Origin: Flavobacteriales bacterium
Lineage (GTDB): Bacteria > Bacteroidota > Bacteroidia > Palsa-965
Length of the DNA stretch: 64,000 nucleotides
Direction of reading: 5' to 3'
Assembly: GCA_040377305.1 (NCBI GenBank)
Contig: JBEIPA010000006.1
Location: 4,177 to 68,176 of the forward strand
Of this stretch, positions 7,158 through 63,180 are shown piece after piece. Within the stretch, counting starts at the first letter, position 1, and every line of letters begins with the position of its first letter. The notes beneath the pieces are model-generated. The model worked only from the letters and a program-made list of their open reading frames with translations, was not told the origin of the DNA and did no database searches. A program made the translations under genes and the position numbers.

Positions 7158-7669
7158 TGTTCGATCCAAAAGCAATCATTCATCAACTCGACCGGAACGC
7201 TCCTGTGTTTTTCGGAATGTTTCATTCTATTCCTACAGACACGCGTAAATGGAAATCTGCTCCGGAGAAATGGTGTGCGTTAGAAATACTTTGTCACCTC
7301 TACGATGAAGAGCGGGAAGATTTTCGTGCGCGTACCAAACACGTATTGGAAACACCGAAAGATCCAATGCCCGGAATTGATCCGGTGAAACTGGTGACGG
7401 ACAGAGATTACATCGGACAGAATTACGACGAGATGCTCGCGGGATTTATTCAGGAACGCAAAGCTTCTGTTGCGTGGCTGAATTCATTGACGAATGCAAA
7501 TTGGGAACAAGCGTACGAGCATCCGAAAATGGGTCCGCTACCAGCGAAAATGTTTTTGACGAATTGGCTTGAGCACGATTACCTGCACATGCGTCAGTTG
7601 CTTACGTTGAAGCATAATTATCTCGCACAATCGACAGGGATTAGTTTGAAGTATGCGGGTGAATGGTAA
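7157..7669 (+). CDS. DinB/YfiT-like (DinB_2) metal-dependent hydrolase family protein
   Basis: The start overlaps the upstream stop (ATAATG). The conserved W.ALEILCHL..E and H..YLHMRQL histidine-containing helices are typical of the DinB_2 four-helix bundle. Confidence 0.5.
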   Translation: MFDPKAIIHQLDRNAPVFFGMFHSIPTDTRKWKSAPEKWCALEILCHLYDEEREDFRARTKHVLETPKDPMPGIDPVKLVTDRDYIGQNYDEMLAGFIQERKASVAWLNSLTNANWEQAYEHPKMGPLPAKMFLTNWLEHDYLHMRQLLTLKHNYLAQSTGISLKYAGEW

Positions 7670-7672
7670 AGA

Positions 7673-7797
7673 CAGTGCGCAGTTGGCAGTGCGCAGTAAG
7701 CAGTACACAGTACGCGGTAGAGCGGTAGAGCGGTCACAGTTAGCTTGATGCAGCGTTACTGCGCACTGCTTACTGTGTACTGTGTACTGCGTACTGC
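7673..7797. terminator. bidirectional hairpin region between convergent genes, built from CAGT(A/G)C hexamer repeats
   Basis: gcgcagtaagcagtacacagtacgc on the left is complementary to gtactgtgtactgc...ttactgcgcactg on the right. It lies between the stops at 7669 (+) and 7798 (-). Confidence 0.6.
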
Positions 7798-9141
7798 TTA
7801 CTTGTCCGTGGCTTCTACGCATCTCACAACTAAAGCAACATCTGCAGCAAGTGCGTAATTATACTGCGCGCTGTTCTGTCCGGAAACTTTATAGCAGATA
7901 GCGCCAATTTTATTTCCGTACGCGTTGAATCCTGAATCAGGAATGTGGCTGAGTTCATTGGTGTCTTTCGCAGTGAAGATCCAGACATTGTAATCCGTGC
8001 CGGTGTTCAATCCGGAAATTGTGATTTTGTGATTCAGGGTCTGTGCACATAAAGGTTGCGCACCATTTTTTGCCTGATGTGTAGTAATGCACGGCACCAC
8101 GTAATAACGATCCGTATCAATGCGCACTGCAACTCCCTGCGGAAGTGTATCGCTCAAGCCGGTGATTGCAAATGCTGCGTTGCCGTCTGAACCGCGTTTC
8201 GATGGCGATTGCGCAAGCTGATACGCGTTGCAGGTGTACTTGCCATCACTGTCGGGCACATCCTGTTCATTCAGATTACGGTACTTGCCAAGATCCATGA
8301 TAAAATTCCACGCGGGATTATCCGGATCAGGACAACCACCATCGGGCAGCCATCCTCCTGTTTTAGTAATGTCGTTCTCCGTTTCCATGATGTAACGGAA
8401 ATAATATGGAATCGATCCTCCATGTGGTTGCTGACCGCACACCATTAATCCGTGATCACTGAAAACAATTTCATCATCGGCAAAATATTTTGTGTCGGAG
8501 AAATCGTTGTTCGAGCCCCAGCCGATTACAATCACAATGTGGTCGAAGTCGGTGTCCTCTGAACCGGCAAGAAAATCCTGCACGCCGAGTACAACCGGAC
8601 GACCATTGACAACGTGTTTCTTCATCCACGGAATAAAATTCTTTACCGTGTCCTGATCCATTCCCTCGAAATGCTCATGCGCGAGATGCAGATGCTTCAA
8701 CACTTCATTGGTAGGAACGAAACATGAATTATCTGCGCCCTTGGTGTTGTTCCATATCTGCGGCAACAACTGACAATAATATTGTCCGTTCTTCTGAAAC
8801 CAATTCCGGAAACCATCTTTGTCGCCGGGAAAATCTCCGCCGGGAGAACCTTTCGCTTTCCATTCAACACCGAAATAATTGAGCCACATCTTCTCGAGTT
8901 CCGGTGAAGGAGTGGTTGCCTTGTCGCCCCACAGCTTATGAAAATAATCGGCCAGCACCTGCCGCACCATGTACATGGGAATGTACTGTCCGTACAGCAG
9001 TCCCGCCGACAAAACAGAAGTTTCTCCGCAATAACCCGAAGCAGAACTGCTCCAGTTGTTGTCGTCGATGTTCCACATCAGGCGCGGTGGAATGTCGTTA
9101 ATGCGGACGTTGGATTGTGTGAGGAAGAGGTAGGCGTTCAT
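7798..9141 (-). CDS. papain-fold cysteine peptidase-like protein (C39-like / phytochelatin-synthase-like) with C-terminal beta-rich domain, no signal peptide
   Basis: GYCGETSVLSAGLLYGQ resembles the C39/PCS nucleophile motif (x)CG.A.L....YG. A later DHIVIVIGWG resembles the His strand. About 170 aa of extra C-terminal sequence follows. The N-terminus has no hydrophobic leader. Confidence 0.4.
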   Translation of the reverse strand: MNAYLFLTQSNVRINDIPPRLMWNIDDNNWSSSASGYCGETSVLSAGLLYGQYIPMYMVRQVLADYFHKLWGDKATTPSPELEKMWLNYFGVEWKAKGSPGGDFPGDKDGFRNWFQKNGQYYCQLLPQIWNNTKGADNSCFVPTNEVLKHLHLAHEHFEGMDQDTVKNFIPWMKKHVVNGRPVVLGVQDFLAGSEDTDFDHIVIVIGWGSNNDFSDTKYFADDEIVFSDHGLMVCGQQPHGGSIPYYFRYIMETENDITKTGGWLPDGGCPDPDNPAWNFIMDLGKYRNLNEQDVPDSDGKYTCNAYQLAQSPSKRGSDGNAAFAITGLSDTLPQGVAVRIDTDRYYVVPCITTHQAKNGAQPLCAQTLNHKITISGLNTGTDYNVWIFTAKDTNELSHIPDSGFNAYGNKIGAICYKVSGQNSAQYNYALAADVALVVRCVEATDK

Positions 9142-13719: not shown

Positions 13720-13914
13720 AAATGTTAAGTCTTAATAATTCTTGCCAAGATGTTTGTATCTATTACTATTGTTGTGTTCTCGTTATACGCTTGCTGGTAA
13801 CGTTTTCAGGCTTCGCGTTGGTGGGCTTTTGGAACACTAAAGTTTATTAATCGCTCAAATGTTGATACTCGCACTATACGCCCACTAACGCAAAACCCGT
13901 GTTAGCAGTTGTTA

Positions 13915-15051
13915 TTATACCAATTCTACATACGTCTTGTCATTCAAGTCTTTTCTAATTATATTCCAATGTGCAAGAACTTGAGGAACATACTCTTTAC
14001 CATTATTTATGGCTGCAAGATATTCTTCTTTATCAATAGCATTTCCTGTTATATATTTATAGGTTGTCTCAAGCACTATCGCTAGTTCTCCATAGATTGC
14101 TTTTGAAAATGATTCATACTGCTTTGGATAATATGCTTTTAAGTATTCATCAACGGTGGCAAGAATCATAGTTTGTCTCACCCTCGGATGAGGATGTGTT
14201 TGGACTTTAGAATCGATACTTCTGTAAATACTAGACTCGACCATTATGCGTGTAAGAGTCAGTACTGCTAACGACCAATTAAATATTGTTCTATCGAAGT
14301 CAACATAAAATTCCTTCCTATCCTCGGAAACACTTTGTTCCCCTAAATGTCTTTTTACTGCATTTACTAATCCTTTACAAACAGCTAAGCAATCGGCATC
14401 CATTTCTAAAGTTTGAATAGTTAAAATATCATCTTCGGAAATGGCTTTAATATTTCGCTCCTCATAAATATTCGTTCCAAAACGAGTCTTAATGAAATCA
14501 AGATGCCCATTAATTATATGAGTCAATTCGTGAGCTACTAGAAAATCGACAGACACATCAACCAAATGCCTAGCATACGCTTGCCTAATCTTATCATTTG
14601 GAATAGCCATTTGATAAGCATTGTAGTCAATATCGCCACATGTAACCAAAAGATTTGCGTCTAAATAGTAATTTCTTATTGTTGGACTATTTTTTGTTTC
14701 CAAAGAAGTGTCTCCAACTTCACCTAACACGAGAGGATTCGAAAGCATTCTGAAGAACAGGTCGTATAGTATTACTACAGCCCCCGCATTTATTCCAATA
14801 AAATAAAATCCATCATTTGTTTTCGCGGCAATAGCATTAAATTCTGGACTATCTATAAAGTCAAAATGAATATTAGGAGGGCTCTTTATTAAGCTCTCGT
14901 GATTTCTACAACTCTCAATATATTTAATTGCTCTGTTTCTATAGTACTCAAAAACAGCAAAACTATCTTTAGACAATTTCTCTGTCTTAAAAAGGCCACC
15001 TTTGTCTTTAAAAGTTTTATCAAACAATATCTTTTGATCGTTTTCGAACAT
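13915..15051 (-). CDS. HExxH zincin-like metallopeptidase-domain protein of unknown function
   Basis: VAHELTHIINGH (HExxH) with a downstream EMDAD acidic motif. The gene is AT-rich like the adjacent ATPase/HNH pair and is 195 bp upstream of it on the same strand. Confidence 0.5.
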   Translation of the reverse strand: MFENDQKILFDKTFKDKGGLFKTEKLSKDSFAVFEYYRNRAIKYIESCRNHESLIKSPPNIHFDFIDSPEFNAIAAKTNDGFYFIGINAGAVVILYDLFFRMLSNPLVLGEVGDTSLETKNSPTIRNYYLDANLLVTCGDIDYNAYQMAIPNDKIRQAYARHLVDVSVDFLVAHELTHIINGHLDFIKTRFGTNIYEERNIKAISEDDILTIQTLEMDADCLAVCKGLVNAVKRHLGEQSVSEDRKEFYVDFDRTIFNWSLAVLTLTRIMVESSIYRSIDSKVQTHPHPRVRQTMILATVDEYLKAYYPKQYESFSKAIYGELAIVLETTYKYITGNAIDKEEYLAAINNGKEYVPQVLAHWNIIRKDLNDKTYVELV

Positions 15052-15161
15052 TTCGATTGTTTACATTATAACTGCTAACTCTATAATTATTCTGTATTTA
15101 ATAGAACTATCCCCTGCTATCCCAAACATTGTTGGCACAGCATCGCGAGAACTATTTTTCC

Positions 15162-16880
15162 TCACCCCCACTCCCCCAACGTCACCACCAACCCCTTCGT
15201 TCCCACCGGCAGCGGATCGTATTTCGAAGGAACTTCCGGCTGACCTGTTGGTGCGGGTGGAATTGGTCCTGCGTTTTCGTCGTAAGCGAAACCGTAAGCT
15301 TGTCCCATGGTTGTGCCGCGTGCGCAGGTGGTGGAGTTGGATGCCTGGATGAAGATGGGAACGTTGTCGGTGCTCTTCTTCTTGGTTTTCGGATCGGTAG
15401 TCGTCACCGCAACTGTTGCTGTGTGCATGAAGAGTGAGAATAAATTCTGCACCGTTTTTTCCGGATACCAATTGGTTTGTGTGCCCCAGTATTTCGAAGT
15501 GTAGCCCGCCGTTCCTGATGTGGGTGCGGAGTTCGCTACACCACGGTTCAACGCACTCACCAATTGGTTCTGAATGTTCAGCGCTACCGACTGCTGATCG
15601 GCATTCAATCCCGGTGCAAATGCAAACACGCCTGCATTGCCGAATGCCATAGCGCCACTCGTCAGGAACATGCCCGGCACTTTGGAAAATCCGAACTGGG
15701 CGTTGGGTGTTGTTCCGCTCAGTGTACTTCCTTCGAGCACAACAGATGTAATTCCTGCTGCTGTTGTGTTGATGGATTTAATCACGGTGTTATTCGGATC
15801 AACTCCTGCGCCGGTGACGTACATGCCCGTGAGCAGATTTGTAGCTGCCGGCAGCGGAGTGGTGAATGTCAGCGTTGCATTGCTGAGCACTCCGGTGATT
15901 GCAACAGGACCCGAACTTCCGGCGTACGACATGGTGCATAATCCGATCGGATTGAAAACAGTAAACACCTGCTTGTTGCTTGCTCCGGTGAACTGCAATG
16001 CAGCATGAGAAAGTTTTGTGTTGCCCGGAATCGGTTGTGCAGCAGTTGATGTTACCGTGTAGATGTCGGGCGTAATTGTTTTTCCACCGCCAACACCTTG
16101 TATGCTGAGTTTATTATTGGAGAACAACGTGGTGAGATCCGCATCAAACCATCCGTTCAGTTTGCTGTCGAGATGAAGCAACTGGTTGGTTGTATCGATG
16201 GAACTCAGGTAAAGTCCGGGATTGAGCAGTCCGCCGTAGTTCGTTGAATACTGCATATCCAGAAACGGTGCTGCACTTGCTCCGAGTGCGTTAATGAATG
16301 GTGCATACGCGCTGATGATCGATGCGCGCGTGACAGCTGCATTGCCAAGCGGTTGTCCTACGGCACCACCCTGATTGAGTGTGATCGTCACCGGCAAAGT
16401 GAATCCATCTACAGTTTGCACGTCAATCACTGGTCCGTAACCTGGATCTACGATTGTGAATTCGCAAAAAGAATACGGTGGTACTGCTGAGTTGGGTGGA
16501 TTCTGCACATTGGTTACGTTGGCGCCTTGTCCGCTGTAAGCGATTTGTGGTCCGGACGAAAACTTCGAATTATCTGCGATGAAAAAATAAATGCGTGCAC
16601 CGTCGATCTTAGCTGCGTCGGTAAACGGAGCAGGAATGTCGATCTGCACTTCGAGAATTTCATCATTGAGTTTGTACACCGGCAGTGTTCCGCTCGCTGC
16701 AGTAACAGGAGTGAATGTGGCAGTTTTGGGTTTGATTTTGCTTTTGCGGTTGGCGCTTATCGACAACATCTTTTGCGACTTCGTAGTAAACCCGAGGACG
16801 TAGATGGTGTATTTATCGGAAGGCAATTTCGTTCCGTCGTTCAACGCAATGGTGAGCGTTGTTCCTTGTGCAGCAGTCAT
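15162..16880 (-). CDS. GH64-family beta-1,3-glucanase-like (GH64-TLP superfamily) protein, no signal peptide
   Basis: N-terminal TLTIALNDG...YTIYVLGF, RIYFFIAD and C-terminal GQAYGFAYDE parallel the LPHase blocks TLPLTITNNSG..IWIY, RIYFSYG and KAYGFAFDD. Translation starts directly at the mature-like sequence. Confidence 0.55.
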   Translation of the reverse strand: MTAAQGTTLTIALNDGTKLPSDKYTIYVLGFTTKSQKMLSISANRKSKIKPKTATFTPVTAASGTLPVYKLNDEILEVQIDIPAPFTDAAKIDGARIYFFIADNSKFSSGPQIAYSGQGANVTNVQNPPNSAVPPYSFCEFTIVDPGYGPVIDVQTVDGFTLPVTITLNQGGAVGQPLGNAAVTRASIISAYAPFINALGASAAPFLDMQYSTNYGGLLNPGLYLSSIDTTNQLLHLDSKLNGWFDADLTTLFSNNKLSIQGVGGGKTITPDIYTVTSTAAQPIPGNTKLSHAALQFTGASNKQVFTVFNPIGLCTMSYAGSSGPVAITGVLSNATLTFTTPLPAATNLLTGMYVTGAGVDPNNTVIKSINTTAAGITSVVLEGSTLSGTTPNAQFGFSKVPGMFLTSGAMAFGNAGVFAFAPGLNADQQSVALNIQNQLVSALNRGVANSAPTSGTAGYTSKYWGTQTNWYPEKTVQNLFSLFMHTATVAVTTTDPKTKKKSTDNVPIFIQASNSTTCARGTTMGQAYGFAYDENAGPIPPAPTGQPEVPSKYDPLPVGTKGLVVTLGEWG

Positions 16881-24511: not shown

Positions 24512-24610
24512 GACAGCCGCGGGATTCATCCCGCGGTGTTATGTCCAGATCGATACCAAACAACATGAGAACGGCGGGTTTAAACCCGCCGTTGTTCATG
24601 TCGCAAATTT
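24512..24610. terminator. two perfect stem-loops between convergent genes
   Basis: ccgcgggattcatcccgcgg (24517-24536) and aacggcgggtttaaacccgccgtt (24571-24594). These lie between the stops at 24494 (+) and 24770 (-). Confidence 0.7.
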
Positions 24611-33259: not shown

Positions 33260-34255
33260 CTACTTCTCTAAAAAATCATTCAGCGGCTTTATAAACCGGT
33301 CAAACGATTCAATGTGCGGAAGATGTCCAATATCATCCAGTTCCACCAATGTCGAATTGGGAATAGCCTTTTGTGTTTTCTTTCCCAATTCATTGTACAA
33401 TCCCATTTTCGCCTGCATCTCTTTCGTTGCACGCTCTTTTCCGATTGCTGTTCTGTCCCGCGTGCCGATGATCAGCAGAGTCGGACATTTTATATTTCCA
33501 AACTCATACACTACAGGCTGAGTGAACACCATATCAGTCGTCAATGCCGCATTCCACGCAATGAGCGGATAATCTGCATGCAGTGTCCAGCCCGCCAAAA
33601 GATATAACCAACGATCATACTGCGGCTTCCAGTTGTTGTCGTAATAATATTTCAGCTGGTACGCGCGATAACTCTCCACGGTGTTCTTCAGTTCACTCTG
33701 GTAATTCGCGTCAATACTCTGATAGCTCGTCTGCACTTTGTAGTCCTCCAGACCGATTGGATTTTCAAGAATGAGTTTCTCCGTCATCTCCGGATACGAC
33801 AATGCAAAACGCGTTGCCAGCATTCCGCCCATAGAATGACCGAGCACAATCACTTTGGTAAGTCTCAGACTGTCCAGAATAGATTTGATATTGAAAGCCA
33901 GCTGATGAAAACTGTATTGATAATTCTGCGGCTTCGTCGATTTTCCAAAACCAATCTGATCCGGCGCGATGACACGATATCCTTTTGCATTCAGTGCAGC
34001 AATGGTCTGTTCCCAATACGCCGCGTTGAAATTCTTTCCGTGAAGCAACAGAACCGTTTTTCCGTTCGTCATGAGTGGAGCCACATCCATATACGCCATT
34101 CGCATCTGCTGACCCTGAGATTTGAACGCATGAAACTTCACCTCGAAAGGATAAGTCACGGTAGAAAGATCTTTGTCCAGCGCCGTTAATTTATCCTGGG
34201 AGAAACAAGGAATTGCCGTTACGAAAAAGAACAGCAGAAGAATATGGATTTTCAT
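33260..34255 (-). CDS. secreted alpha/beta-hydrolase fold protein
   Basis: Signal MKIHILLLFFFVTAIPCFSQ. GHSMGG nucleophile elbow. Confidence 0.8.
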   Translation of the reverse strand: MKIHILLLFFFVTAIPCFSQDKLTALDKDLSTVTYPFEVKFHAFKSQGQQMRMAYMDVAPLMTNGKTVLLLHGKNFNAAYWEQTIAALNAKGYRVIAPDQIGFGKSTKPQNYQYSFHQLAFNIKSILDSLRLTKVIVLGHSMGGMLATRFALSYPEMTEKLILENPIGLEDYKVQTSYQSIDANYQSELKNTVESYRAYQLKYYYDNNWKPQYDRWLYLLAGWTLHADYPLIAWNAALTTDMVFTQPVVYEFGNIKCPTLLIIGTRDRTAIGKERATKEMQAKMGLYNELGKKTQKAIPNSTLVELDDIGHLPHIESFDRFIKPLNDFLEK

Positions 34256-34428
34256 TGCGAAATGATTTCAGTTTGAATTTGAACGTGTGGATAATATCAC
34301 TCGTTCATCACTCAAATTTCATTCCGGTTTGTATCAATCCAATTTGCTTTCACGTGACTTGGTCTATGAGAACGGCTCACTCACGCAGCGAGTGCATTAT
34401 CCCCTAAACATGCTTATGATAACCGCGT

Positions 34429-34450
34429 CGTCCCGATAGCTATCGGGACG
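34429..34450. repeat. 22-bp perfect palindrome cgtcccgatagctatcgggacg; left boundary repeat of the R-M island
   Basis: Its 18-bp core tcccgatagctatcggga recurs identically at 41519-41536. Confidence 0.8.
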
Positions 34451-34670
34451 CGCGGATAGCAGAAGCAGGTTGGAACAGAATTTTGTCTTGATGACCAATC
34501 ACCTCATGATTGGGAAGTGTTGCCTCGGGGAGTGAGAAATCGGTAATAGTTTTATTGAGAGAGGCAATGTGTTGCCGCATGGCAAAACTGATACTTAAGC
34601 TTCGCACTGCTTTAGAATTACTTCAACAGATCGATATTGATCGAAGAGTGGCTACGGTCTTTAATGTAGG

Positions 34671-34835
34671 TCACGCCGCAGAGCGACTTTTGCCTTTAGT
34701 TGTACTGCGTTTCTTACTGCGCCTTTTCAATTTTTGCGCCCGCATGATCTCTCTGAATTCTTCCACTTCCTTGTCCGACCATGGCTCTGACTTAATAATC
34801 AGGTCAACGTTTTTAGGTTCTTTGATGAGTCCCAT
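34671..34835 (-). CDS. small basic protein (54 aa), second gene of a two-gene module
   Basis: ATG at 34835 is 4 nt after the stop of the upstream 174-aa ORF. The lysine/arginine-rich tail KLKRRSKKRSTTKGKSRSAA suggests nucleic-acid binding. Confidence 0.3.
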   Translation of the reverse strand: MGLIKEPKNVDLIIKSEPWSDKEVEEFREIMRAQKLKRRSKKRSTTKGKSRSAA

Positions 34836-34839
34836 GATT

Positions 34840-35364
34840 TCAGTTTTTAAAGTATTGTGCGACAAGTTTACCTGCCGATTCAGTATCAATGAACATCCGT
34901 TGACCTCGGAGATGTGTCGCCCCGATAGACTTTTGATAGTGTGAAATTAACTTTGTCTTACTATCAAATGCAACATAGCCATCATAATTCCTATCGAAAG
35001 CAAGCTTACATGCGAATGCCACTAAGTTGCCTGGAACGCCGAGATATAATTTATGCTTACCAATATTGAATTTTGCACTTTCAAGAAGATGCATGAAAAT
35101 ATGATCTTGCTTATCTTCAATTGCAACAAGTCCCTGTATTATTGACGCGTTATTGGCAGTAGTCAATTTGTAGATTTCCTTCGACTTGTCCTTGTGCTCT
35201 GACTTCCAATTGAACTGCCAGTCTTTGCGTGTAATTCCTTTTATGTCCTTTTCGGTGACCGCTATTATCTGCGTATCAAAGACTTCCCCGGAAAGAGTGT
35301 TTTCAATAGAGTTCGTCAGCTTGTCAATGACGAAATCAAGGTGCTTTTTTACTTCCCTTTTCAC
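34840..35364 (-). CDS. 174-aa protein, possible GNAT-like fold (weak), first gene of two-gene module in R-M island
   Basis: YLGVPGNLVAFACKLA could be a degenerate acetyl-CoA-binding motif. No stronger signature. Confidence 0.3.
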   Translation of the reverse strand: MKREVKKHLDFVIDKLTNSIENTLSGEVFDTQIIAVTEKDIKGITRKDWQFNWKSEHKDKSKEIYKLTTANNASIIQGLVAIEDKQDHIFMHLLESAKFNIGKHKLYLGVPGNLVAFACKLAFDRNYDGYVAFDSKTKLISHYQKSIGATHLRGQRMFIDTESAGKLVAQYFKN

Positions 35365-35446
35365 CCTCTAATTTACGAAATATTAAGCGGACCTGAAAAT
35401 GCGTTTAAGGAGCAAAAATGGGGCGAGCCCATCGCTTCACGCACCT

Positions 35447-36265
35447 CTATTCCTTCACAATCCTCTTCACCACTCTCCCCTCATTCGTCGCAACTTCCAG
35501 AATGTATACACCCGCTGCGTATCCGGTCAAGTCAATGCTCGGACTTTTTGAAACCAACACGGTATTACCCTGAAGATCTTTTACGGTAACAGATTCCGTT
35601 ACACACGAAGATGACGTTGCAATGGAAATCACACCCGATGTCGGATTCGGATAAACCTGAATCATTGCATCTGCTGTTGCAAGATTATTCGTGTTTGTGA
35701 TATCGGAAATCGTAAAATCGTCAACGAAATTCCAGCCGTACGTACCTGCGATGGTGCGGATGGTGATGTGAGAGCAATTGATCGTCGGAGTAAATGTGAC
35801 AGTAACAAAATCCCAGGTGAGTCCGGGAACCGCAGCAGTATCAATTGCCGTTCCGAATAGCGTGCTGTCGTTTGAATAACCAATCTCGAGCAGGTTAGCT
35901 CCGTAACCCGGATCTTTGCGGTTATAAAAACTCAACAGATAAGTGTTACCTGCAACGAGTGGCGCAGACAACTCCATTGAAAATCCGTCAGTGAGTGTAT
36001 TCGTAATATCAACTGCCAGCCCTACAAATTGATTTCCATGTTCAGCCGTGCCATATCCACAGGGGTTGTTGATTATATCCAGCTGATCTGCAGAACCGAA
36101 TGCGTAACAATCGTTCATCATACCGTTGAACGAAGCGTTTGTGATATTGAAATTGCAGTTGCCGGAGGTACTTTCAAAACTGCCGTTGAGGAAGGTTTGG
36201 GCGGTGAGAAATGTTGGAGTTGAGAGAAGGAATGCGGAGAGGGTGAGGAGGTAGGAGTGTTTCAT
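35447..36265 (-). CDS. T9SS type-A CTD protein of unknown function
   Basis: ATG at 36265 gives MKHSYLLTLSAFLLSTPTFLTAQ. The C-terminal QVYPNPTSGVISIA...GVYILEV is a sorting domain. Confidence 0.7.
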   Translation of the reverse strand: MKHSYLLTLSAFLLSTPTFLTAQTFLNGSFESTSGNCNFNITNASFNGMMNDCYAFGSADQLDIINNPCGYGTAEHGNQFVGLAVDITNTLTDGFSMELSAPLVAGNTYLLSFYNRKDPGYGANLLEIGYSNDSTLFGTAIDTAAVPGLTWDFVTVTFTPTINCSHITIRTIAGTYGWNFVDDFTISDITNTNNLATADAMIQVYPNPTSGVISIATSSSCVTESVTVKDLQGNTVLVSKSPSIDLTGYAAGVYILEVATNEGRVVKRIVKE

Positions 36266-36526
36266 GGTTGGGGGTTGGTGAGTCGATGATTGTGAGATGA
36301 AATTTAGTAAATAATCCTCCAATAAATTTAGAAGAGTGTGTTCAGGTTAGTTGTGGTATTTCTGACAACCAAATTGCTGTCTTCACCATGCGAGTAATTT
36401 GCGTCGGTCCGAATGGGTTGGACGTAGAAGGTGTTGATTTGGGAGAAGCAGGTGGTGATGGTAACGAAGGAGATGATTGTAAAAATTAATCTCATGAGAT
36501 GACTGAGCTGATAGGGATGTGTTCAC

Positions 36527-38386
36527 TCAAAACACAATTTTTACATCTTCTTTATAATTCTGCAGTGTTCCATTCAAACTTGCTGTCCATCCGTCAATAA
36601 ATACTTTGCCATTTTTAAGGGCATTTGAATAATCGTCACTGGCAATTTTCTCACTGTTGGTTATGTAATAATGATGGCCGATTTTGTAAATGCAATCCTT
36701 AACCACTTCTTCAGGAACTTGAGTTGGTTCGTCTAAACCAACGGTGAATACCATATTGTAAATACGACTTAAAGCATCAGTTTCGTTTTCAGTTATTGAG
36801 ATTTGCCCTTGATCATCCACTTTTAATTTTGGTGCTTCCACGCTATCAAAAACCTTGAAGCCAATATCAGGAACTTGTTTTTTATCCTCATCAAACAATC
36901 CTGCTTTACTGTTTTCCTCTTCAATGTGTTGAGCAATCTTTTCACCTGCACGTTTCAAACGTTCAATTGTTATACTTGAAATAACCGGTGATAAATTATT
37001 TGCTACACAAAAGTCATAAGAATCTTTGTTTTTGACTGGATTAATAGGTTCATCTATTTGACACAAAATAAACTTCCGGTTACCACCATCTTCGGCATTA
37101 ACCTGTATAACTGCATGGCCTGTTGATCCTGAACCCGCAAAGAAGTCAAGAATTATTCCGTCTTTACCGCTCATTTGTATTATTTGCTCAATCAACTCAA
37201 CTGATTTAGGAGTTTCAAAAACAACTACGCCATCAAACAATTCTTTAATTTTGTTCTTTGCAGTCTCTGTAGTGCCTACGTCTTCTGCGAATAATATAGA
37301 TTCAGGAGTCAAACCTCTTTCTTTTGCTTCTAAGTAGGTCTTAACTCTTGGCACTCCATTCCCATCCTTACCGAACCAAATTCTTTTATCCTTAATTGCT
37401 TCATCCATCACATTTTCTGTATAAAGCCAGCACCTACCGCTTTCAAGTTTATGTATTTTCCCATTCGGCGCTTTTAGGTCATAGAATTGCGATTTAGTTC
37501 CATGGCCAGCTTGAGCAGTTGCAGGGTCTGACTTCCAAAGCCCTCTTGGATCATTGTCAGGATTCTTATAGTTGGACAATGCCTTTTCACTCATTGGAGT
37601 TTGGCTAATAGACCGGACACCTTCAATCTGGTTTTTTGAATAACATAAGATGTAGTCATGCCTGTTTGAAACAACTTTTCTATTTTCCCTGTTTGTTCTT
37701 TTCTCCCAAATAAAAGTGGCAATAAAATTCTCCTCACCGAAAATATCATCACAAAGTAATTTCAGATTAGCTTGTTCGTTATCATCGATGCTAATAAAAA
37801 TAACACCATCTTTTCTTAATAAGTCTTTAGATAATAAAAGGCGCGGATACATAAACGCTAACCAACCGTTGTGGCTCTTTTTAGTTCTAAAGCTAAAATC
37901 CATTCGAGCAAAATCACTTTCATCCAAGTTAGCCATGCCCAAAACTTCCGCTTCTTCTTTGTCAAACTTATCAGGATAAACAAATTCGTCGCTTTCAGTA
38001 TTGTATGGTGGATCTATATAAATGCACTTCACTTGTCCGCTGTAATAATTTTTTAGAATCTTTAAGCTATCCAAATTGTCACCCTTCAGCACCAAATTTT
38101 TTGTTGTTTCAATACTCTTGCTCAATGTGGGATTTAGGTGGAGTTCTTTATCAGTTTTTTGGTCATATTTAGCTCTGGCAAAGTTTCTTCCGACAAAATT
38201 TAATCCGTAACCGTTTACTTTTTCATCAATTGGTAAACCCAATGCGGCCTTTAGTTCCTCTATATTTAGTTCGGTGTCGCGTATTACATTAGGGAAGTTC
38301 TCTTTCAGAAAACTCAACAATATGTTTTCGCGGGCTTCTGTTCCAACAACTGTAAATCCTGCTTTTATAAAATCTTGTTCTGCCAT
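36527..38386 (-). CDS. mod: Type III restriction-modification system methyltransferase (Mod), N6-adenine
   Basis: IYIDPPYNTESD (DPPY motif IV) and FFAGSGSTGHAV (motif I). Immediately upstream of a Res gene. Confidence 0.9.
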   Translation of the reverse strand: MAEQDFIKAGFTVVGTEARENILLSFLKENFPNVIRDTELNIEELKAALGLPIDEKVNGYGLNFVGRNFARAKYDQKTDKELHLNPTLSKSIETTKNLVLKGDNLDSLKILKNYYSGQVKCIYIDPPYNTESDEFVYPDKFDKEEAEVLGMANLDESDFARMDFSFRTKKSHNGWLAFMYPRLLLSKDLLRKDGVIFISIDDNEQANLKLLCDDIFGEENFIATFIWEKRTNRENRKVVSNRHDYILCYSKNQIEGVRSISQTPMSEKALSNYKNPDNDPRGLWKSDPATAQAGHGTKSQFYDLKAPNGKIHKLESGRCWLYTENVMDEAIKDKRIWFGKDGNGVPRVKTYLEAKERGLTPESILFAEDVGTTETAKNKIKELFDGVVVFETPKSVELIEQIIQMSGKDGIILDFFAGSGSTGHAVIQVNAEDGGNRKFILCQIDEPINPVKNKDSYDFCVANNLSPVISSITIERLKRAGEKIAQHIEEENSKAGLFDEDKKQVPDIGFKVFDSVEAPKLKVDDQGQISITENETDALSRIYNMVFTVGLDEPTQVPEEVVKDCIYKIGHHYYITNSEKIASDDYSNALKNGKVFIDGWTASLNGTLQNYKEDVKIVF

Positions 38387-38390
38387 TGTT

Positions 38391-41312
38391 TTATGCGTTG
38401 TTTATCAAAGCCGCTAATTGCGTTTTGTTGATACGTTCTTTGTATGATATTTTTATATTTTGTCCTTTGTAGTGTTCGCCCAATGCCTCAAAATATTTTT
38501 TTGCAAAATCGATTTTCTCTTTTTCATCTACGGGTATTGCGGTCGACGATTTGTAGCCTTTAGCTTCTACTACAAGAAATATTTTGTTTCCTCCTGAGCT
38601 TTTGACTGCATAGCAAAAGTCCGGGTTGTAATCGCCCAAAGGCGTTTTTATTTTTAGGCGCGGAAGTTTGCCAAAAATTTCAATACTGTCAACATCAGGG
38701 TCTTGCTCCACAATTTCCAATTCAAAATCGCTGTCGTATTCAATCACATCTTCAAATATCCATTTGTTTTTCAAAGAAAAATCACCTGCAATGTCTTTTT
38801 GAAATTTGCCAACGCTTCCTGTGTCCAAGTATGTTCTTCCATTTTCGTTCTTAAATACGTTTGGCAGACCGGTTCCGTTAATCCCGTCGTACTTGATATT
38901 CGCCTTGAGTATTGCAATTAAGTTCTTATTGATTATTTGTGTAATTTCTCTTTGGGCTTGTTCAGGATTGTTGCACAGCATCTTATTCTTGAAATCATCA
39001 CTCAGAGCATTGAATACCTTTACAACAAATGAAATAGGTGTTTTGGTCTTGTTTGCTAAAGTGTGAACCAATTCTAGATAATTAATTTTGCTTTTGTAAG
39101 AAGCTGTCTCCGTTAGTCTTTCTGTTATCGCACCTTGTTCACCAATCTTGTTCACGTTTAGTTCAGCACGAATGGTCTGCAACAGAATTTCTTCAATGTT
39201 TACGGCTTCTATCTGCACTTTTATGTTTTGTATCAATTGTTTTTCTTGTGAATCACTTAAAGTTTCTAGCACATAAAAAGCATTTTTGTTGATAGCGTTC
39301 CATAGGTTTTGAAACTCTTCCAGGTGGGTTGCTTTAATAAAAACCTTCTTTTTGGGTTTAATTTTTTTAGCATCCTGAATGTATTTGTTTGCATCAGTTG
39401 CAAACAAGCTTTCAATCGCTTTAACTTGCTCTTCGGGCAAATTTTGTTCCTTCAGTATTGCAGTGAACTCGGGTGACTTTTCATAAATCTTTTGTCCGTC
39501 AACAATTGCCTTTCTAACAATCATTTTCTTCTCCTTCAACACATCATCAACTAACGTAATGATTGTATCATCATCGAAGCCCGATTTTTCTTTAAGGGTT
39601 TTAATCAGTTCTTGCTCTGTAAATGTTTCGGAAATTAAGAATGAATTACTTAATATTTCGTTTTGAATAGCTTCAACAAAACCTTGTTCCTTACTTGAGA
39701 CAACCACATCGAGGTTGTTGATTTTCCAAAAAGCCTCTTGGTCGTCATTCAGGTTTTTAAGTGTATATCGTTGCAAATTTTGATTCACACAAATGCGTAA
39801 TCCTCTTCCAATTTGTTGAAGCTTCGATATTTCACTTCCTTGATTGGATAGTTTACATATTGTAAACACATTCGGATTATCCCAACCTTCCTGCAAAGCC
39901 CAAATAGAGAAAATGAAACGTGTGGGACTTTCAAACGAAAGCAACTTCTTTTTGTCTTTTAGAATTTCATCAACCCCTGCTTTGACTTTTTCGTCAGCAT
40001 TTCCCTTGTCACCGGAAAAATAACCTTTGTGCACTTGCAAAGAGTTGTCACTGTCAAAATCGTTTTGCAGGTATTTTTTATACTCACATGTTTGATCAAG
40101 TTTGCTTACAAGTGCGGAGTATTGCTTTTTGTATTCTTCTTCAAATATGTTTTTTACTTTTGGTTTTTCGCCACGAAACAAACTGGTGTCTGCTTCCATA
40201 AAAAACAAGGTGAGTGCTTTTACGCCTTGCTCAAACAGTGATTTTTCCTTCTCAAAATGTATTTTTATTGTTTCTCTGATCATTGCCCGCAATGACTCGT
40301 CAGATAAAGAATAATCAACCTTTTCTATGGTGTCGTCCGCTAGAACAATGGTGTCTTTGTTTATTTTTTTAATGCTTTTGCCGTTGAATATTGCACCAAT
40401 CCCAGATACTCGCGGCACTACAATTCCGTTGGTTAGAGTGTTTACGTACGCCATATATTTTGAGCTAACCTTTTCTATGCCAACTAGCGTATCTGTGTTT
40501 TCAACTACGTCCTGAGTGTAAACCACGATTTTCTTTACCAGGTTTTGTCGGAAAGAAGAAATGCTGTCCAATACATACGCCACGTTTGATAATGGCAAAC
40601 TGTCTTTCTTCTTTGGAAATGTAGCTCCAAAACGCAAATAGTAATTGTCAAACCCTTCAAAATAGGTTTTAAAGGCATTGCCTTCAAAACGGTGAGGTTC
40701 GTCCATTATCACAATCGGTTTTAAGCGTTTCAAACATTCTAAATACGATTTTGGCGTATCCTGATTATTTACAAATAGTTCTGGTGCGTTCATTTCTCTT
40801 TCCAACGGACGATTCAGAATGTTGTCTTTGCTATTAAATGAACTTGGTGTCATCACCAATACCGATAAATGCGAAGCGCCAATAAATTGTTTAACCGCGG
40901 AAAGGTTTCCGCCTTCGTAAACGAATGCTTCAATTTCCTTTTCTCTTTCGTTAGCGTAAAAACTCTTAAAATAATTTTTGGTATCCTCTAGATTTGTTTT
41001 TGTACCCTCGCGAATTGGAACGGTAGGAATAAGAATGATAAACTTCTTGTAGCCAAAGTTTTTACTCAGCTCAAAAATGGATTTTATAAACGTGAACGTT
41101 TTTCCCGTTCCCGTTTCCATCATTATGTCAACGTTTTTGTTGTCCTGAACTGGAAAATTGTATTTGTTCCTTTTATGGTGGGCCGTCAGCACATCATCAA
41201 AATTTTGTTTTTGGCGAAGGCTTTCAAAAAGACTGATAATGCTATTTACGCAGTCTTCCTGATAGGTTTGTATTTCGTATTGAAACTGTTTTGCTTCTGT
41301 TCTTGTCGTCAT
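38391..41312 (-). CDS. res: Type III restriction endonuclease Res subunit (SF2 helicase + PD-(D/E)xK nuclease)
   Basis: METGTGKT Walker A and VIMDEPHRF (DEPH box). The C-terminal DFCYAV...VVEAKGY is nuclease-like. 973 aa. Confidence 0.9.
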   Translation of the reverse strand: MTTRTEAKQFQYEIQTYQEDCVNSIISLFESLRQKQNFDDVLTAHHKRNKYNFPVQDNKNVDIMMETGTGKTFTFIKSIFELSKNFGYKKFIILIPTVPIREGTKTNLEDTKNYFKSFYANEREKEIEAFVYEGGNLSAVKQFIGASHLSVLVMTPSSFNSKDNILNRPLEREMNAPELFVNNQDTPKSYLECLKRLKPIVIMDEPHRFEGNAFKTYFEGFDNYYLRFGATFPKKKDSLPLSNVAYVLDSISSFRQNLVKKIVVYTQDVVENTDTLVGIEKVSSKYMAYVNTLTNGIVVPRVSGIGAIFNGKSIKKINKDTIVLADDTIEKVDYSLSDESLRAMIRETIKIHFEKEKSLFEQGVKALTLFFMEADTSLFRGEKPKVKNIFEEEYKKQYSALVSKLDQTCEYKKYLQNDFDSDNSLQVHKGYFSGDKGNADEKVKAGVDEILKDKKKLLSFESPTRFIFSIWALQEGWDNPNVFTICKLSNQGSEISKLQQIGRGLRICVNQNLQRYTLKNLNDDQEAFWKINNLDVVVSSKEQGFVEAIQNEILSNSFLISETFTEQELIKTLKEKSGFDDDTIITLVDDVLKEKKMIVRKAIVDGQKIYEKSPEFTAILKEQNLPEEQVKAIESLFATDANKYIQDAKKIKPKKKVFIKATHLEEFQNLWNAINKNAFYVLETLSDSQEKQLIQNIKVQIEAVNIEEILLQTIRAELNVNKIGEQGAITERLTETASYKSKINYLELVHTLANKTKTPISFVVKVFNALSDDFKNKMLCNNPEQAQREITQIINKNLIAILKANIKYDGINGTGLPNVFKNENGRTYLDTGSVGKFQKDIAGDFSLKNKWIFEDVIEYDSDFELEIVEQDPDVDSIEIFGKLPRLKIKTPLGDYNPDFCYAVKSSGGNKIFLVVEAKGYKSSTAIPVDEKEKIDFAKKYFEALGEHYKGQNIKISYKERINKTQLAALINNA

Positions 41313-41518
41313 TTGTTACTTCGATTTCCAGTTGTCGAACCGGCATGCTTGGCGACTGTTTATAGCGGATAATTCACATCTGAAAATTAGCAAATAAAAC
41401 TGTCCCGTGTCAACGAAATAGACGCATCATTCATCATAATCGATGTACTCTAAAAACGGCTAACTGCGAACTCCTGACCAGCGAACCGAGCACTAATCAA
41501 TACCCCAACACCAGCCCC

Positions 41519-41536
41519 TCCCGATAGCTATCGGGA
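41519..41536. repeat. second copy of palindrome tcccgatagctatcggga; right boundary repeat of the R-M island
   Basis: Identical 18-mer to 34431-34448. Confidence 0.8.
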
Positions 41537-41592
41537 CATCTCTCCGCCCCCTCAAACTCCATCCCCTTCCCTTTCATCAGCATATCAACTAA

Positions 41593-44500
41593 TCAATAAC
41601 CGAGCACAGGCCCAAGCCACCGCTCTGCAATTTCAAAACTCATCCCTTTCCTCTTCCCATACTCCTCCACCTGCTCCTTCGTAATTTTTCCCACTCCAAA
41701 ATAATGCGCATCCTTCGGAGAGAAATACATTCCGCTTACTGCCGCAGTTGGAACCATGGCTTTGCTTTCGGTGAGCACTAATCCGATTTGATTTTCTGCA
41801 TCGAGCAAACGGAAGAGCTCATCTTTCTCGGTGTGATCGGGTTGTGCAGGATAGCCCGGTGCAGGACGAATGCCTGCGTACGCCTCTTTGATGAGATCGT
41901 CGTTGGAGAGATTTTCGTCTTTCGCGTAACCCCAGAATTCTTTACGCACACGTTCATGCAGGTGTTCTGCAAATGCTTCTGCTAAACGATCGGCCAATGC
42001 TTTCAGCATGATCGCACTGTAGTCGTCGTGGTTCTTTTCGAACTCCGCGACTTTTTCGTCAATGCCGAAACCGGTGCAGACTGCAAAGCCGCCTATGTAA
42101 TCGTTCAAGCCCTCAGGTGCAAGAAAATCAGAAAGCGCAACGTTGTAATGACCGGTCGGCTTTTGTGTTTGCTGACGGATCGCCTGGAATTTCGCTGCGA
42201 TATTTTTTCGTGATGCGTCGGTGAATACCTGCATCTCGTCATCGTTCGCGGTATTCGCCGGCCAGAAACCGATGACAGCACGCGCGGTGAGCCATTTCTC
42301 TTCGATGATTTTCTTCAGCATCGCCTGCGCATCGTTGAAGAGCTTCGTTGCTTCTGCTCCGCGTTCTACATCTTTCAGAATGCGCGGATAGCTTCCTTTC
42401 ATTTCCCAGGAGATGAAGAACGGCGTCCAGTCGATGTAAGGAACGAGTGTCTTCAGCGGATAATCATCCAAAACTTTTGTTCCGTTGAATGTCGGCTCTA
42501 CAAACGTGTGCTTGCTCCAGTCGACCGGAAATTTATTTCTGCGCGCTTCTGCCAGCGAGATAAATTTATTCTGACTCTGCGCACGGGCATTCTGCTCACG
42601 CACACGATCGTAATCTTCATTGACCTGCACCATGAACGGACCACGAAGCTCTTTCGAAATCAAACTCTGCAGAACAGGCACAGATCGCGAAGCATCATGC
42701 ACATGAACAACAGCATGCTTGTAGTGCGGAGATATTTTCACCGCGGTGTGAACTTTCGAAGTAGTCGCACCACCAATCAACAGCGGAACTTCCAATCCAA
42801 CACGCTGCATCTCTTTCGCCATGTGTACCATTTCATCCAGCGATGGTGTAATCAATCCGCTGAGACCAATGATGTCGACTTTTTCTTTCTTCGCCATGTC
42901 GATGATGCGATCAGCCGCCACCATCACACCCATGTCAATGATTTCATAATTGTTGCACGCGAGTACAACGCCCACAATATTTTTTCCGATGTCGTGTACG
43001 TCGCCTTTCACAGTCGCAAGCAAAACTTTTCCTGCCGACTTTCCTTCACCGGCTACTTTCTCCGCTTCGAGATACGGTGTGAGATACGCCACGGCTTTCT
43101 TCATCACACGCGCACTCTTCACCACTTGCGGCAAAAACATCTTTCCGGCACCGAATAAATCACCGACTACGTTCATGCCGTCCATCAACGGACCTTCAAT
43201 CACGTGCAGCGATTTCGGAAACTGCTTACGCGCTTCTTCTACATCTTCGTCGATGTGATCAACAATTCCCTTTACCAATGCGTGAGTCAATCGTTCGGTA
43301 ACTGTTCCGTTTCTCCACGCTGTATCTTTCTCTGCTTTCTTGCCTGCTCCTTCGCCTTTTACTTTTTCAGCGTAAGTGATCAGACGTTCAGTTGCGTCAT
43401 CGCGACGATCAAGCAAAACATCTTCAACGAGGTCGAGCAGTTCTTTTGGAATATTATCATACACCTGCAGCTGACCGGGATTTACAATGCCCATGTCCAT
43501 GCCGTTCTTCACCGCATGATACAGGAACGCAGAGTGAATCGCTTCACGCACGTGATCATTTCCGCGGAAAGAGAAAGAAACGTTACTCACGCCTCCACTC
43601 ACTTTTGCATGCGGAAGATTTTCTTTAATCCACTTCGTTGCATTGAAAAAGTCGAGCGCGTTTTTTCGGTGCTCATCCATTCCTGTCGCGACAGGAAAAA
43701 TATTCGGATCGAAAATGATATCCTGTGGAGGGAAGTGCACCTGATTCACGAGAATATCATAAGCGCGCTTACAGATTTCAATTCTGCGCTCATACGTGTC
43801 GGCCTGACCTTTTTCATCGAATGCCATTACGATTACAGCGGCGCCGTACTTGCGCACGATGTGTGCCTGACGAATGAACTCCGCTTCTCCTTCTTTCATG
43901 GAGATGGAATTCACAATCGCTTTTCCTTGCACGCATTTCAGTCCGGCTTCAATCACATGAAACTTCGAAGAGTCGAGCATGATTGGCACACGAGCAATAT
44001 CCGGTTCTGCTGCAACGAGATTCAGGAAGCGAACCATAGCCGCTTGAGAATCCAACATGCCTTCATCCATGTTGATGTCGATCACCTGTGCACCGCCTTC
44101 AACCTGGTCGCGTGCAATGGCGAGTGCTTCATCGTATTTCGAATCGATGATGAGCTTTGCAAATTTACGTGAGCCGGTAACGTTGGTACGTTCACCCACG
44201 TTCATGAAATTCGAATCGGGACGCAATGTCACCGGTTCGAGTCCGCTCAAACGTAAATACGGATCTATGTATGGAACCGGTCGTGGATTCGTTCCGTTCG
44301 CAATTTCAGCAATGCGTTTGATGTGCGCCGGAGTTGTTCCGCAACAACCACCAATGATGTTGATGAATCCGCTGTCCAGAAAATCGCGGATCTTCTCGCC
44401 CATCTGTTCCGGAGTTTCATCGTATTCTCCAAACTGATTCGGTAATCCTGCATTCGGATAACAGCTCACGAAGAACGGAGCCTTGTCGGCAATCTCTTCC

Positions 44501-45288
44501 ATGAACGGACGCATCTGTTCTGCACCGAGTGCGCAATTCAATCCAACGCTGAGCAAGTCAACGTGAGAAATTGAATTCAGAAATGCTTCTGTCGTTTGTC
44601 CCGATAACGTTCTTCCGCTTGCATCTGTGATTGTACCTGAAACCATCACCGGCAAACGTTTTCCCGTTTCTTCCTGCAAAGTCTGCACAGCAAACAAAGC
44701 GGCTTTCGAATTCAATGTATCAAAAACAGTTTCGATCAGGAACAGATCAACTCCACCTTCCAGTAAAGCACGTGCCTCTTCAAGGTAAGCTGCAACGAGT
44801 TCGTCAAAAGAAACACCACGGAAACCGGGATCATTTACATCCGGCGACAATGAAGCAGTTCTGTTTGTAGGACCTATTGCACCTGCAACCCAACGGTGCT
44901 TCTTCGCCCGCCCGCCTTCGGCATTCGGGTGAAGATTTTCCGCAATGAATTTATCAGCAGCTTTTCGCGCAATCTTCGCTGCTTCCACGTTCATCTCATA
45001 ACAGATTTCCTGCATGTGATAATCGGCCATGGAAATGCGGTTGGCATTGAACGTATTCGTCTCAATGATATCCGCACCTGCCGCGAGATATTCGCAGTGT
45101 ATGTCGTAAATAATTTTCGGTTGTGTGAGAACGAGCAAATCGTTGTTGCCTTTCAGGTCGTGTTTCCAGTCCTTGAAACGTTCTCCGCGGTAATCTGCTT
45201 CTTCCAACTTGTAACGTTGGATCATCGTGCCCATTGCACCATCGATGATGAGCACGCGCTTTTCTAATTCTTTTCTGATGTCTGTCAT
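41593..45288 (-). CDS. metH: cobalamin-dependent methionine synthase
   Basis: ATG at 45288 gives [24 protein letters not shown] (Hcy-binding). Pterin-binding barrel. B12-binding [12 protein letters not shown]-terminal AdoMet reactivation domain. About 1230 aa. Confidence 0.95.
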
Positions 45289-45408: not shown

Positions 45409-45616
45409 TTTGATAAATCGGCGCCGCACAAAAAAGAAAATCCCTACTGTTTAGTCAGAAGGGATCGTTGATATATCAAGGAGTTTAGCTTCTGACTTAT
45501 CTGTAACAGACGGGAGAAAGGAGACAGGAGACGGGCGTGCTGAGTGTGGTTAACACAACATTCCATCTTCATCTCAAAACTCCTCTGCGTCTGTAGCAGG
45601 AATTGGCACCTTCTTC

Positions 45617-45729
45617 GCCAGTAGGCAGTAGTGCAGTCTTGCAGTAGGCAGTCAAAAAGCGAAGCAGGAATTATTCCTGACCACTATTTCTCGACTGCCA
45701 ACTGCCCTACTGCCCCACTGCCTACTGGC
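45617..45729. repeat. GCAGTA/CTACTGC hexamer-repeat hairpin (37-bp imperfect arms)
   Basis: gccagtaggcagtagtgcagtcttgcagtaggcagtc versus gactgccaactgccctactgccccactgcctactggc. Same family as 7673-7797. Confidence 0.65.
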
Positions 45730-45836
45730 ACAGGGTTGCCAAGGCATCATCGGGCACGGTCCCTCCGCCTTTCTGGATAAGTTGTTGGAAAAGAACTGGG
45801 GCAAAGATAAGAAATGGACTTTTACCAATGACAGAC

Positions 45837-63137: not shown

Positions 63138-63180
63138 GTGCAAGAGGGAAAAATGGCGTTGCCATTTTTCCCTCTTGCAC
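63138..63180. terminator. perfect 20-bp stem / 3-nt loop hairpin, nested inside an outer imperfect inverted repeat (63096-63221)
   Basis: gtgcaagagggaaaaatggc gtt gccatttttccctcttgcac. Outer arms gctgaagctcacggcgatc / gatcgccgttcggcttcagc. Confidence 0.6.

Follow-up and report, generated by a model that had tools for sequence, protein, structure and literature searches.

Introduction

Type III restriction-modification (R-M) systems such as EcoP15I and EcoP1I pair a methyltransferase, Mod, with a restriction subunit, Res, and in the classical enterobacterial systems mod is followed by res. Here we analyse a 64,000-nucleotide stretch of DNA from a Flavobacteriales bacterium (GenBank assembly GCA_040377305.1, contig JBEIPA010000006.1, positions 4,177 to 68,176; hereafter the window), in which a Type III R-M system lies in the gap between metH and an alpha/beta hydrolase gene, together with two identical copies of a palindrome. 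PAL is our name for the 18-bp hairpin-repeat family TCCCGATAGCTATCGGGA to which they belong, and L-numbers label the loci and stretches compared. An initial annotation had read the interval between the palindromes as a single insertion of about 7 kb that duplicated a palindromic site. Our comparisons point elsewhere: the gap is probably a mosaic hotspot in which PAL hairpins, resembling repetitive extragenic palindromic (REP) elements and independent of the cargo, occupy the junction DNA.

The R-M unit resembles EcoP15I and EcoP1I in its beta-class N6/N4 Mod with a variable centre and in a Res that joins a superfamily 2 (SF2) helicase to a PD-(D/E)xK-type nuclease; as with other Type III units, it has an atypical composition and recurs nearly unchanged in hosts and contexts that are unrelated. 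It differs in that res precedes mod in every copy seen here and in that the score of Res does not reach the NCBIfam equivalog cut-off. R-M units can travel with insertion sequence (IS) elements or via illegitimate recombination (PMC3031569), and insertion of such a unit with a long target duplication was reported by Nobusato et al. 2000 (cited in PMC3031569). As far as that case is outlined in the citing paper, the window resembles it in having an R-M unit between conserved genes, with a direct repeat at each end and without a transposase. The window differs from the case as outlined there in that its 19-nt repeat belongs to a dispersed family and lies 188 nt and 2.08 kb from the R-M unit, and in that relatives carry no single copy of the repeat at the site.

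Short palindromes of a comparable kind are the REP elements and bacterial interspersed mosaic elements (BIMEs) with RAYT transposases, which include GTAG and CGTC families (PMC3733652) and the Bacteroidetes TnpA-REP subclass 2.6 (PMC6006769); the definition of a REP includes a conserved unpaired 5' tag (GTAG or CGTC) and a tail (PMC3733652). Like these elements, PAL is short, GC-rich and dispersed, mostly extragenic and sometimes intragenic, able to form a hairpin on either strand and often found after genes. Unlike them, it is a perfect 18-bp palindrome without the GTAG/CGTC tag or tail, is shared across orders instead of being species-specific, and is seemingly low-copy. Rickettsia palindromic elements (RPEs), of about 100-150 bp, are restricted to Rickettsia. 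The PAL family, though not the copies in the window, shares with RPEs a tolerated presence in frame in protein genes and in RNA genes; it differs in having 18 conserved bp and a Bacteroidota-wide range. HIP1 (GCGATCGC) is an 8-bp palindrome common to the whole cyanobacterial phylum, with thousands of copies per genome. Finally, pdif (28 bp) and attC (>50 bp) are short dyad-symmetric sites that bound every module and require Xer or IntI, whereas the window has no site separating its modules and no linked recombinase.

Results

The 18-mer occurs at 34431-34448 (PAL1, an exact match with no assigned strand) and at 41519-41536 (PAL2, likewise unstranded). These are the only matches in the window even when three mismatches are allowed, and none is expected in shuffled window sequence, so the exact repeat reported in the initial annotation is real. 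Our count for the source organism, two copies, covers the 64-kb window. Identity between the copies spans 19 nt and does not extend further; PAL1 is a perfect palindrome of 22 nt (CGTCCCGATAGCTATCGGGACG), while PAL2 is palindromic across 18 nt only. PAL1 lies 222 nt past the stop of the small gene orf54, at the apex of a longer imperfect hairpin of about 63 nt (~34409-34471), and its 71-nt context folds with -35.3 kcal/mol (z = -7.4). PAL2 follows the metH stop by 57 nt and precedes the res start by 207 nt, without an enclosing hairpin; on the plus strand it forms a 7-bp-stem hairpin alone (-9.8 kcal/mol, z = -2.4). Each copy sits in junction DNA to which no strand is assigned. The left junction (34269..34694) runs from the hydrolase promoter region to a two-gene module, orf174 and orf54, and contains no supported gene, its open reading frames (ORFs) having no family match; the right junction (41332..41592) runs from the metH stop to the R-M module. 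A 55-aa ORF overlapping PAL1 (34440-34607) is without support, the true small partner of orf174 being encoded at 34671-34835. No tRNA target for insertion is present in the window.

Do the palindromes bound a mobile unit? Blastn against R-M loci in three unrelated contexts (76-86% nt) delimits a Type III module at 36527..41331 on the minus strand, whose homology ends at the mod stop codon (36527) and ~20-40 nt upstream of the res ATG (41331), and not at the palindromes. Elsewhere the unit lies beside T5orf172/PLDc genes and an rve transposase, beside an unknown 258-aa gene, or after parA-parB-DUF5683. None of eleven loci with the R-M unit carries the PAL core, and no terminal repeat accompanies the unit here. 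Nor is the interval one coherent island, as had been supposed: it contains at least two independently mobile modules that are found separately elsewhere, and its GC content is 0.36 in res and mod against 0.39-0.46 in the remainder. The claim that the interval is richer in AT than its flanks thus holds for res and mod, the 4.8-kb R-M unit being the low-GC block (GC 0.363; GC at third codon positions 0.31-0.37), and fails for the left 2.1 kb, whose GC of 0.39-0.46 lies inside the range of the window (0.452 +/- 0.037).

The gap itself is variable among relatives. Its anchors, both on the minus strand, are the alpha/beta hydrolase gene on the left (33260..34255; Pfam-supported, 86% aa and 82% nt to L214) and metH on the right (41593..45288, the start taken at ATG 45288; five Pfam domains, 92% aa to P0241), as the annotation had named them. 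L214, the nearest relative available, shares synteny on the metH side (metH 92% aa and 83% nt, hydrolase 86% aa) and has in its gap (13727-15641) 1.9 kb with a DUF7691-like ORF and a Fic/DUF4172 gene; homology ends at the metH stop, as it also does in L215, and ~13-20 nt upstream of the hydrolase ATG. L215 (89%) and L216 (85%) have other cargo downstream of metH. In L146 (hydrolase 80%; 3700-9100) a decayed Type III res/mod, with res internally deleted and mod reduced to a fragment, lies upstream of the hydrolase with an AAA_21 ATPase and a Schlafen/AlbA_2 gene. Because the cargo differs in L214, L215, L216 and L146, the gap looks like a hotspot where defence and addiction genes have settled repeatedly. 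The check proposed in the annotation, a search for an empty site with a single palindrome in relatives, gave none: within about 20 kb each of L214, L215 and L216 there is no PAL-like site within four mismatches, the nearest matches differing at 5/18 positions, and the corresponding position after metH in L214 is taken by a GC-rich hairpin of another kind. A similar test through hydrolase relatives had returned 28 metagenome loci (<=83% aa) without synteny to the window and was redone through metH relatives. The single-insertion model is weakened, not strictly excluded, because the relatives compared belong to other species.

Domain tests on Mod and Res indicate that the Type III system is complete. 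The annotation had also named such a system, listing the DPPY motif of Mod and the helicase and nuclease of Res; the order mod-res given there is reversed, res being the first gene transcribed. The res gene (38391..41312, minus strand) encodes a 973-aa Type III restriction subunit with an SF2 helicase and a C-terminal endonuclease (ResIII, RE_endonuc; PF04851, PF00270 and PF19778; PADLOC REase_III, E = 4.6e-122). It matches NF012027 with E = 1e-139, yet its 467 bits fall short of the curated cut-off of 564. The mod gene (36527..38386, minus strand), adjacent and co-oriented after a 4-nt gap, encodes a 619-aa Type III methyltransferase of the N6_N4_Mtase type (PF01555, E = 8e-39; PADLOC MTase_III, E = 3.9e-149), with DPPY (motif IV) ahead of FAGSGS (motif I) in translation. 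Its 565-nt centre (~37156-37720), the variable target-recognition domain, is unalignable between homologous modules, and mod has no simple-sequence repeats that would suggest phase variation. The best 120 homologue clusters of Res are all 88-91% identical and come from Flavobacterium, other Flavobacteriales and unclassified Bacteroidota; in contrast, metH of the window is only 59% identical to a Flavobacteriaceae metH. These identities suggest that the R-M unit circulates among Bacteroidota at ~85% nt and 88-91% aa identity. In Flavobacterium filum-type copies res and mod are separated by an inserted PDDEXK_3 gene (L159:13063-13470, L160:3258-3665).

All genes between the palindromes are on the minus strand, as annotated, and would be transcribed in the order res, mod, a 55-aa ORF, a type IX secretion system C-terminal-sorting-domain (T9SS-CTD) gene, orf174 and orf54. 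The last two form the second mobile module (34695..35421, minus strand), nucleotide homology to a relative covering 35421..34695. The gene orf174 (34840-35364, minus strand) encodes 174 aa with a predicted GNAT fold, toxin-like, and orf54 (34671-34835, minus strand) a 54-aa partner with a basic C-terminus and conserved sequence; both had been noted as a pair. There are 7,296 homologues of orf174, the best 120 nearly all of 174 aa, and none has a Pfam domain; the orf174/orf54 family is thus large and unannotated. A relative with 87% identity has a 58-aa gene 4 nt downstream, in a different neighbourhood without PAL, and none of six loci with the pair has the PAL core. No sequence match to orf174 was found in Pfam or PDB. 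Its structural model (pLDDT 68, pTM 0.70) finds TacT3, AtaT and KacT as the best PDB matches by Foldseek (E = 1e-5, TM 0.55-0.6, at that pLDDT of 68). As modelled, orf174 would resemble TacT, AtaT and KacT in fold, in its similar size, in having a small partner gene and in moving as a two-gene unit. It differs in its 13-16% identity, its model pLDDT of 68 and its lack of a Pfam GNAT match, and its partner lies downstream after a 4-nt gap, as against the upstream ribbon-helix-helix (RHH)-type antitoxin of TacAT and AtaRT; searches of orf54 gave no family match and detected no RHH domain. On the modelled fold, the pair is probably a candidate addiction or defence module.

The T9SS-CTD protein reported in the annotation is also present (35447..36265, minus strand; 272 aa from ATG; PF18962 and TIGR04183; GC 0.46), and its homologue in L214 (63% aa, 273 aa) occupies a different position, 2 kb downstream of the hydrolase. 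Between it and mod lies a 55-aa ORF of uncertain status (orf55b, 36328..36495, minus strand) with a signal-peptide-like N-terminus and no family match; it shows no similarity to the 518-aa T9SS gene located ahead of the T9SS homologue in L214 and was rejected as a remnant of that gene. Searches of Pfam, NCBIfam and PADLOC found no integrase, recombinase or transposase domain in any ORF of 34256-41592, in agreement with the annotation.

What, then, is the palindrome? The genome scan for the exact 18-mer used one genome per species and gave at least 120 stretches, where uniform composition predicts by our calculation about 9 in 596 Gb; a complete scan of viral contigs gave 46 IMG/VR stretches. 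Together, the 120 genome stretches listed and the 46 viral ones make up 166 loci. The named records listed are all Bacteroidota, except one AT-rich contig binned as Variovorax and probably mis-binned, and the orders among the matches listed are Flavobacteriales, Chitinophagales, Cytophagales, Sphingobacteriales and Bacteroidales. Flanks are unrelated across loci, conservation being confined to the 18 bp, with a weak R/Y preference and no conserved tag. The initial annotation had held that its site-specific, duplicated repeat would fall if the palindrome lay at many unrelated loci; it is dispersed over more than 160. PAL-selected loci totalling 1.32 Mb contain 185 exact copies and 53 with 1-4 mismatches; control Bacteroidota loci picked on other grounds (552 kb) contain none within four mismatches. 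Perfect dyad symmetry is kept in 14/23 two-mismatch variants (for example GCCC..GGGC, CCCC..GGGG, TACC..GGTA and TTCC..GGAA). In the unbiased IMG/VR set, symmetric doubles in the outer positions number five against one matching single, and the centre shows six singles and two symmetric doubles; this is the pattern of a stem and loop, though the numbers are near chance level (~1).

Among scorable copies 89/105 are intergenic, falling between 59 tandem, 16 convergent and 14 divergent gene pairs, and because of this split PAL is not distributed like a pure terminator. About 13% of copies, PAL1 among them, lie inside a larger stem, against 3% in controls; T-runs follow several such copies (L180, L205, L071), and in L197, L029, L200 and L028 PAL caps PAL-like hairpins. 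More than one exact copy is present in 8/120 of the genome stretches listed and 6/46 of the viral stretches, the genes between such pairs being mostly ordinary and including a DbpA helicase, a protein with a metallo-beta-lactamase (MBL) fold and DUF885. PAL is apparently low-copy per genome, the 120 stretches listed coming from ~110 genomes.

Several simple identities for PAL were rejected. It is not formed by the terminal inverted repeats of some larger element lying back to back, the half-sites never occurring alone (142 and 146 against 141 cores). It has no fixed target-site duplication: abutting repeats of at least 5 nt occur at only 7/175 copies, and the direct words flanking it reflect low-complexity flanks. 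A RAYT-linked REP finds little support at the loci searched, a RAYT-like ORF being found in 1/166 loci only (L010, 650 nt from PAL and not flanked by it) and in neither the other 165 loci nor the window. PAL pairs are not defence-gene cassettes, given their mostly ordinary intervening genes, and an Rfam search found no known RNA family, the SAM riboswitch being the only hit of the search above threshold and a miRNA match over the PAL1 hairpin being at chance level. The searchable literature on the PAL sequence, its peptides and Bacteroidota palindromic repeats yielded nothing specific.

PAL also enters genes. At least seven PAL copies are in frame in Pfam-supported genes, translated as PIAIG or PDSYR; the genes include aroA (EPSP synthase), a class I (Glu/Gln) tRNA synthetase, sdaA (serine dehydratase) and the receiver domain of a hybrid kinase, and an RNase HII-like ORF, its identity assigned from sequence without a Pfam test, also bears a copy. 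In-gene positions are L018:1178, L047:1778, L037:6947, L026:4183 and L012:7414. In EPSP synthase PAL corresponds to a 7-residue gap against the solved homologue PDB 7tm4 (~7 codons). In 5' fragments of tRNA-Val, tRNA-Gly and tRNA-Pro (L117, L082 and L033), aligned with the adjacent intact tRNA, PAL replaces the D-loop AGT(T). In L049, likewise, PAL lies in a 5' fragment that resembles a tRNA, next to an intact tRNA-Asn, the replaced bases (~GTT) being a reconstruction. A small GIY-YIG ORF adjoins three of these four D-loop fragments (L117, L033, L049); in L082 just ~33 nt separate the fragment from the intact tRNA. L089 has PAL in place of the anticodon-loop ATAAT, twice: a 456-bp insert with a GIY-YIG ORF and an intact tRNA-Met is bounded by two PALs in a 37-nt direct repeat that splits a tRNA-Met copy. 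Two viral contigs have a full-length tRNA-Met with PAL in the D-loop. The tRNA-associated copies lie at L117:48-495, L082:1517-1671, L033:7230-7400, L049:4320-4790, L089:245-790 and L164:4800-4930, and each of the six GIY-YIG ORFs in the data set has a PAL no more than 430 nt away.

Single PAL loci show further arrangements. At L054:5440-6980 a 1.3-kb DUF2975 gene is flanked by inverted repeats that are at least 40 nt long and have two PALs at their centre, arranged as an invertible or composite segment would be. A polysaccharide-synthesis cluster of Algoriphagus aquimarinus (L043:200-5800) has seven PAL-family copies, canonical and variant, many in intergenic gaps, and also an ORF of the 23S-rRNA intervening-sequence (IVS)-type four-helix bundle. 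In a Tamlana sp. (L041:2345-3101) PAL lies ~740 nt downstream of a metH (59% aa), which may be coincidence given the 120 loci listed (rough chance ~0.08). Other Bacteroidota hairpin words (gtcatcctgagcg..cgaaggatg, gtcattgcgag..gaagcaatc and cctcacccc..ctctcc-loop-ggagagg) adjoin or surround PAL in the flanks of L036, L070, L075, L120, L163, L165, L173, L189 and L204, and one such word stands at the equivalent post-metH spot of L214 (13735-13765). Several Bacteroidota hairpin families seem to share niches and to nest within each other.

Discussion

We consider it probable that the metH-hydrolase gap is a variable region that has accumulated independent modules, with PAL hairpins in its junction DNA. 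Comparison with other loci shows its parts to be the 4.8-kb R-M unit, the 0.73-kb orf174 and orf54 pair, and a T9SS-CTD gene whose homologue lies elsewhere in the locus of a relative. The R-M unit may have entered by recombination without a dedicated integrase, and the PAL copies would have arrived or arisen independently of it. On minus-strand transcripts they might act in the manner of REPs: the messages upstream would be insulated or stabilised by firm 3' hairpins that follow metH and orf54. Of the original insertion idea this keeps a horizontally acquired, variable stretch and gives up the single ~7-kb insertion with duplication of a palindromic site.

Several points weigh against this explanation. 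The role of the hairpins is a step that we infer, and neither PAL1 nor PAL2 has a U-tract or is flagged in a terminator scan. Both copies occupy the outermost intergenic DNA of the gap, as a site-duplicating insertion would yield, and PAL appears to be low-copy per genome; its density by itself would therefore not readily predict two copies 7 kb from each other. Moreover, the relatives compared are other species (83% nt in metH), and hence there is no true empty site among them.

For the family as a whole, we advance tentatively a second reading, whose probability we place well short of even: PAL may be a very small mobile hairpin, not described before, that inhabits Bacteroidota and their phages, retains its symmetry through compensatory change and is copied into exposed, loop-like sites. 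Its targets would be intergenic DNA, hairpin apices (PALs too), the D- and anticodon loops of tRNA gene copies beside GIY-YIG genes, and the parts of housekeeping genes that encode surface loops. If so, PAL pairs could occasionally be crossover points that bracket acquired DNA, as around the R-M gap.

Could PAL itself be the site of exchange? An unlikely alternative generalises the model of the initial annotation: PAL would be a recombination site of the attC or pdif kind, and the 7.07-kb block, or earlier versions of it, would have entered a single PAL downstream of metH, leaving one PAL at each end and a block that could be excised or inverted. It would account for the identical 19-nt copies at both ends of the gap, for the clustering of PAL pairs a few kb apart elsewhere, for the two PALs central in the inverted repeats of L054 and for the compensatory changes that preserve dyad symmetry. 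We retain it as a rival because the PALs are outermost in the gap and seem low-copy per genome, and because the L089 insert is PAL-bounded. However, three relatives have no PAL in the gap or within ~10 kb; module homology ends away from PAL, no PAL separates the modules inside the 34431-41536 block, and both the R-M and the orf174 modules occur elsewhere without one. Other PAL pairs enclose mostly ordinary genes, the interval has no recombinase, and the copies within genes and tRNA loops are unsuited to a cassette site. An 18-bp sequence without a conserved flank is also short for the sites of tyrosine and serine recombinases (loxP, dif, hix).

We likewise doubt that the palindromes are purely functional, that is, terminators or mRNA-stabilising hairpins after metH and orf174/54 that share an optimal hairpin and have no insertion history. 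Their placement is as expected, PAL2 57 nt after the metH stop and PAL1 222 nt after that of orf54, capping a 63-nt hairpin; L214 has a different GC-rich hairpin after metH; some 13% of copies lie in a larger stem, several of them followed by T-runs; and the IMG/VR variants covary in the outer stem and change singly at the centre (counts near chance). Yet convergent selection for a stem-loop is not expected to give an identical 18-mer across orders, 14/89 scorable intergenic copies lie between divergent genes, at least seven are in frame in Pfam-supported genes and others in the loops of tRNA copies, and the window copies, without a U-tract, go unflagged as terminators. Lastly, import of each palindrome with a module (PAL2 in the upstream flank of the R-M unit, PAL1 in the downstream flank of orf174/54) would fit its position in junction DNA of unknown origin beside one module, but is very improbable and already disfavoured, 188 nt and 247 nt separating the PALs from the ends of module homology and eleven R-M loci and six loci with the orf174 pair having no PAL core.

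Why does this matter? The R-M island is in itself ordinary, a new copy of a promiscuous Type III unit in a defence hotspot, the limits of the hotspot being now defined. The correction is of wider use: short identical repeats that edge acquired DNA are no evidence of site duplication until the repeat has been shown to be site-specific. The PAL family, seemingly undescribed, is the more interesting lead. Sharing across orders, in-frame copies in aroA and an aminoacyl-tRNA synthetase gene, and copies in tRNA loops by GIY-YIG genes form a pattern that points to an undescribed active copying mechanism. If this is true, PAL would be the smallest known dispersed mobile element and a source of annotation artefacts, for example spurious ORFs and PIAIG or PDSYR inserts.

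Other features of the window

A SAM riboswitch (RF00162, 52.6 bits) lies upstream of metH at 45578-45783 on the minus strand. At 32865 the window has a T-run of TTT where the otherwise identical Logan contig L121 has TTTT; the difference, a homopolymer sequencing error or a real frameshift, splits into two ORFs an M24 peptidase gene that encodes 254 aa in L121. Strong perfect hairpins, unrelated to PAL in sequence, also occur at 24517-24536, 24570-24593 and 63138-63180, with stems of 9, 12 and 20 bp.

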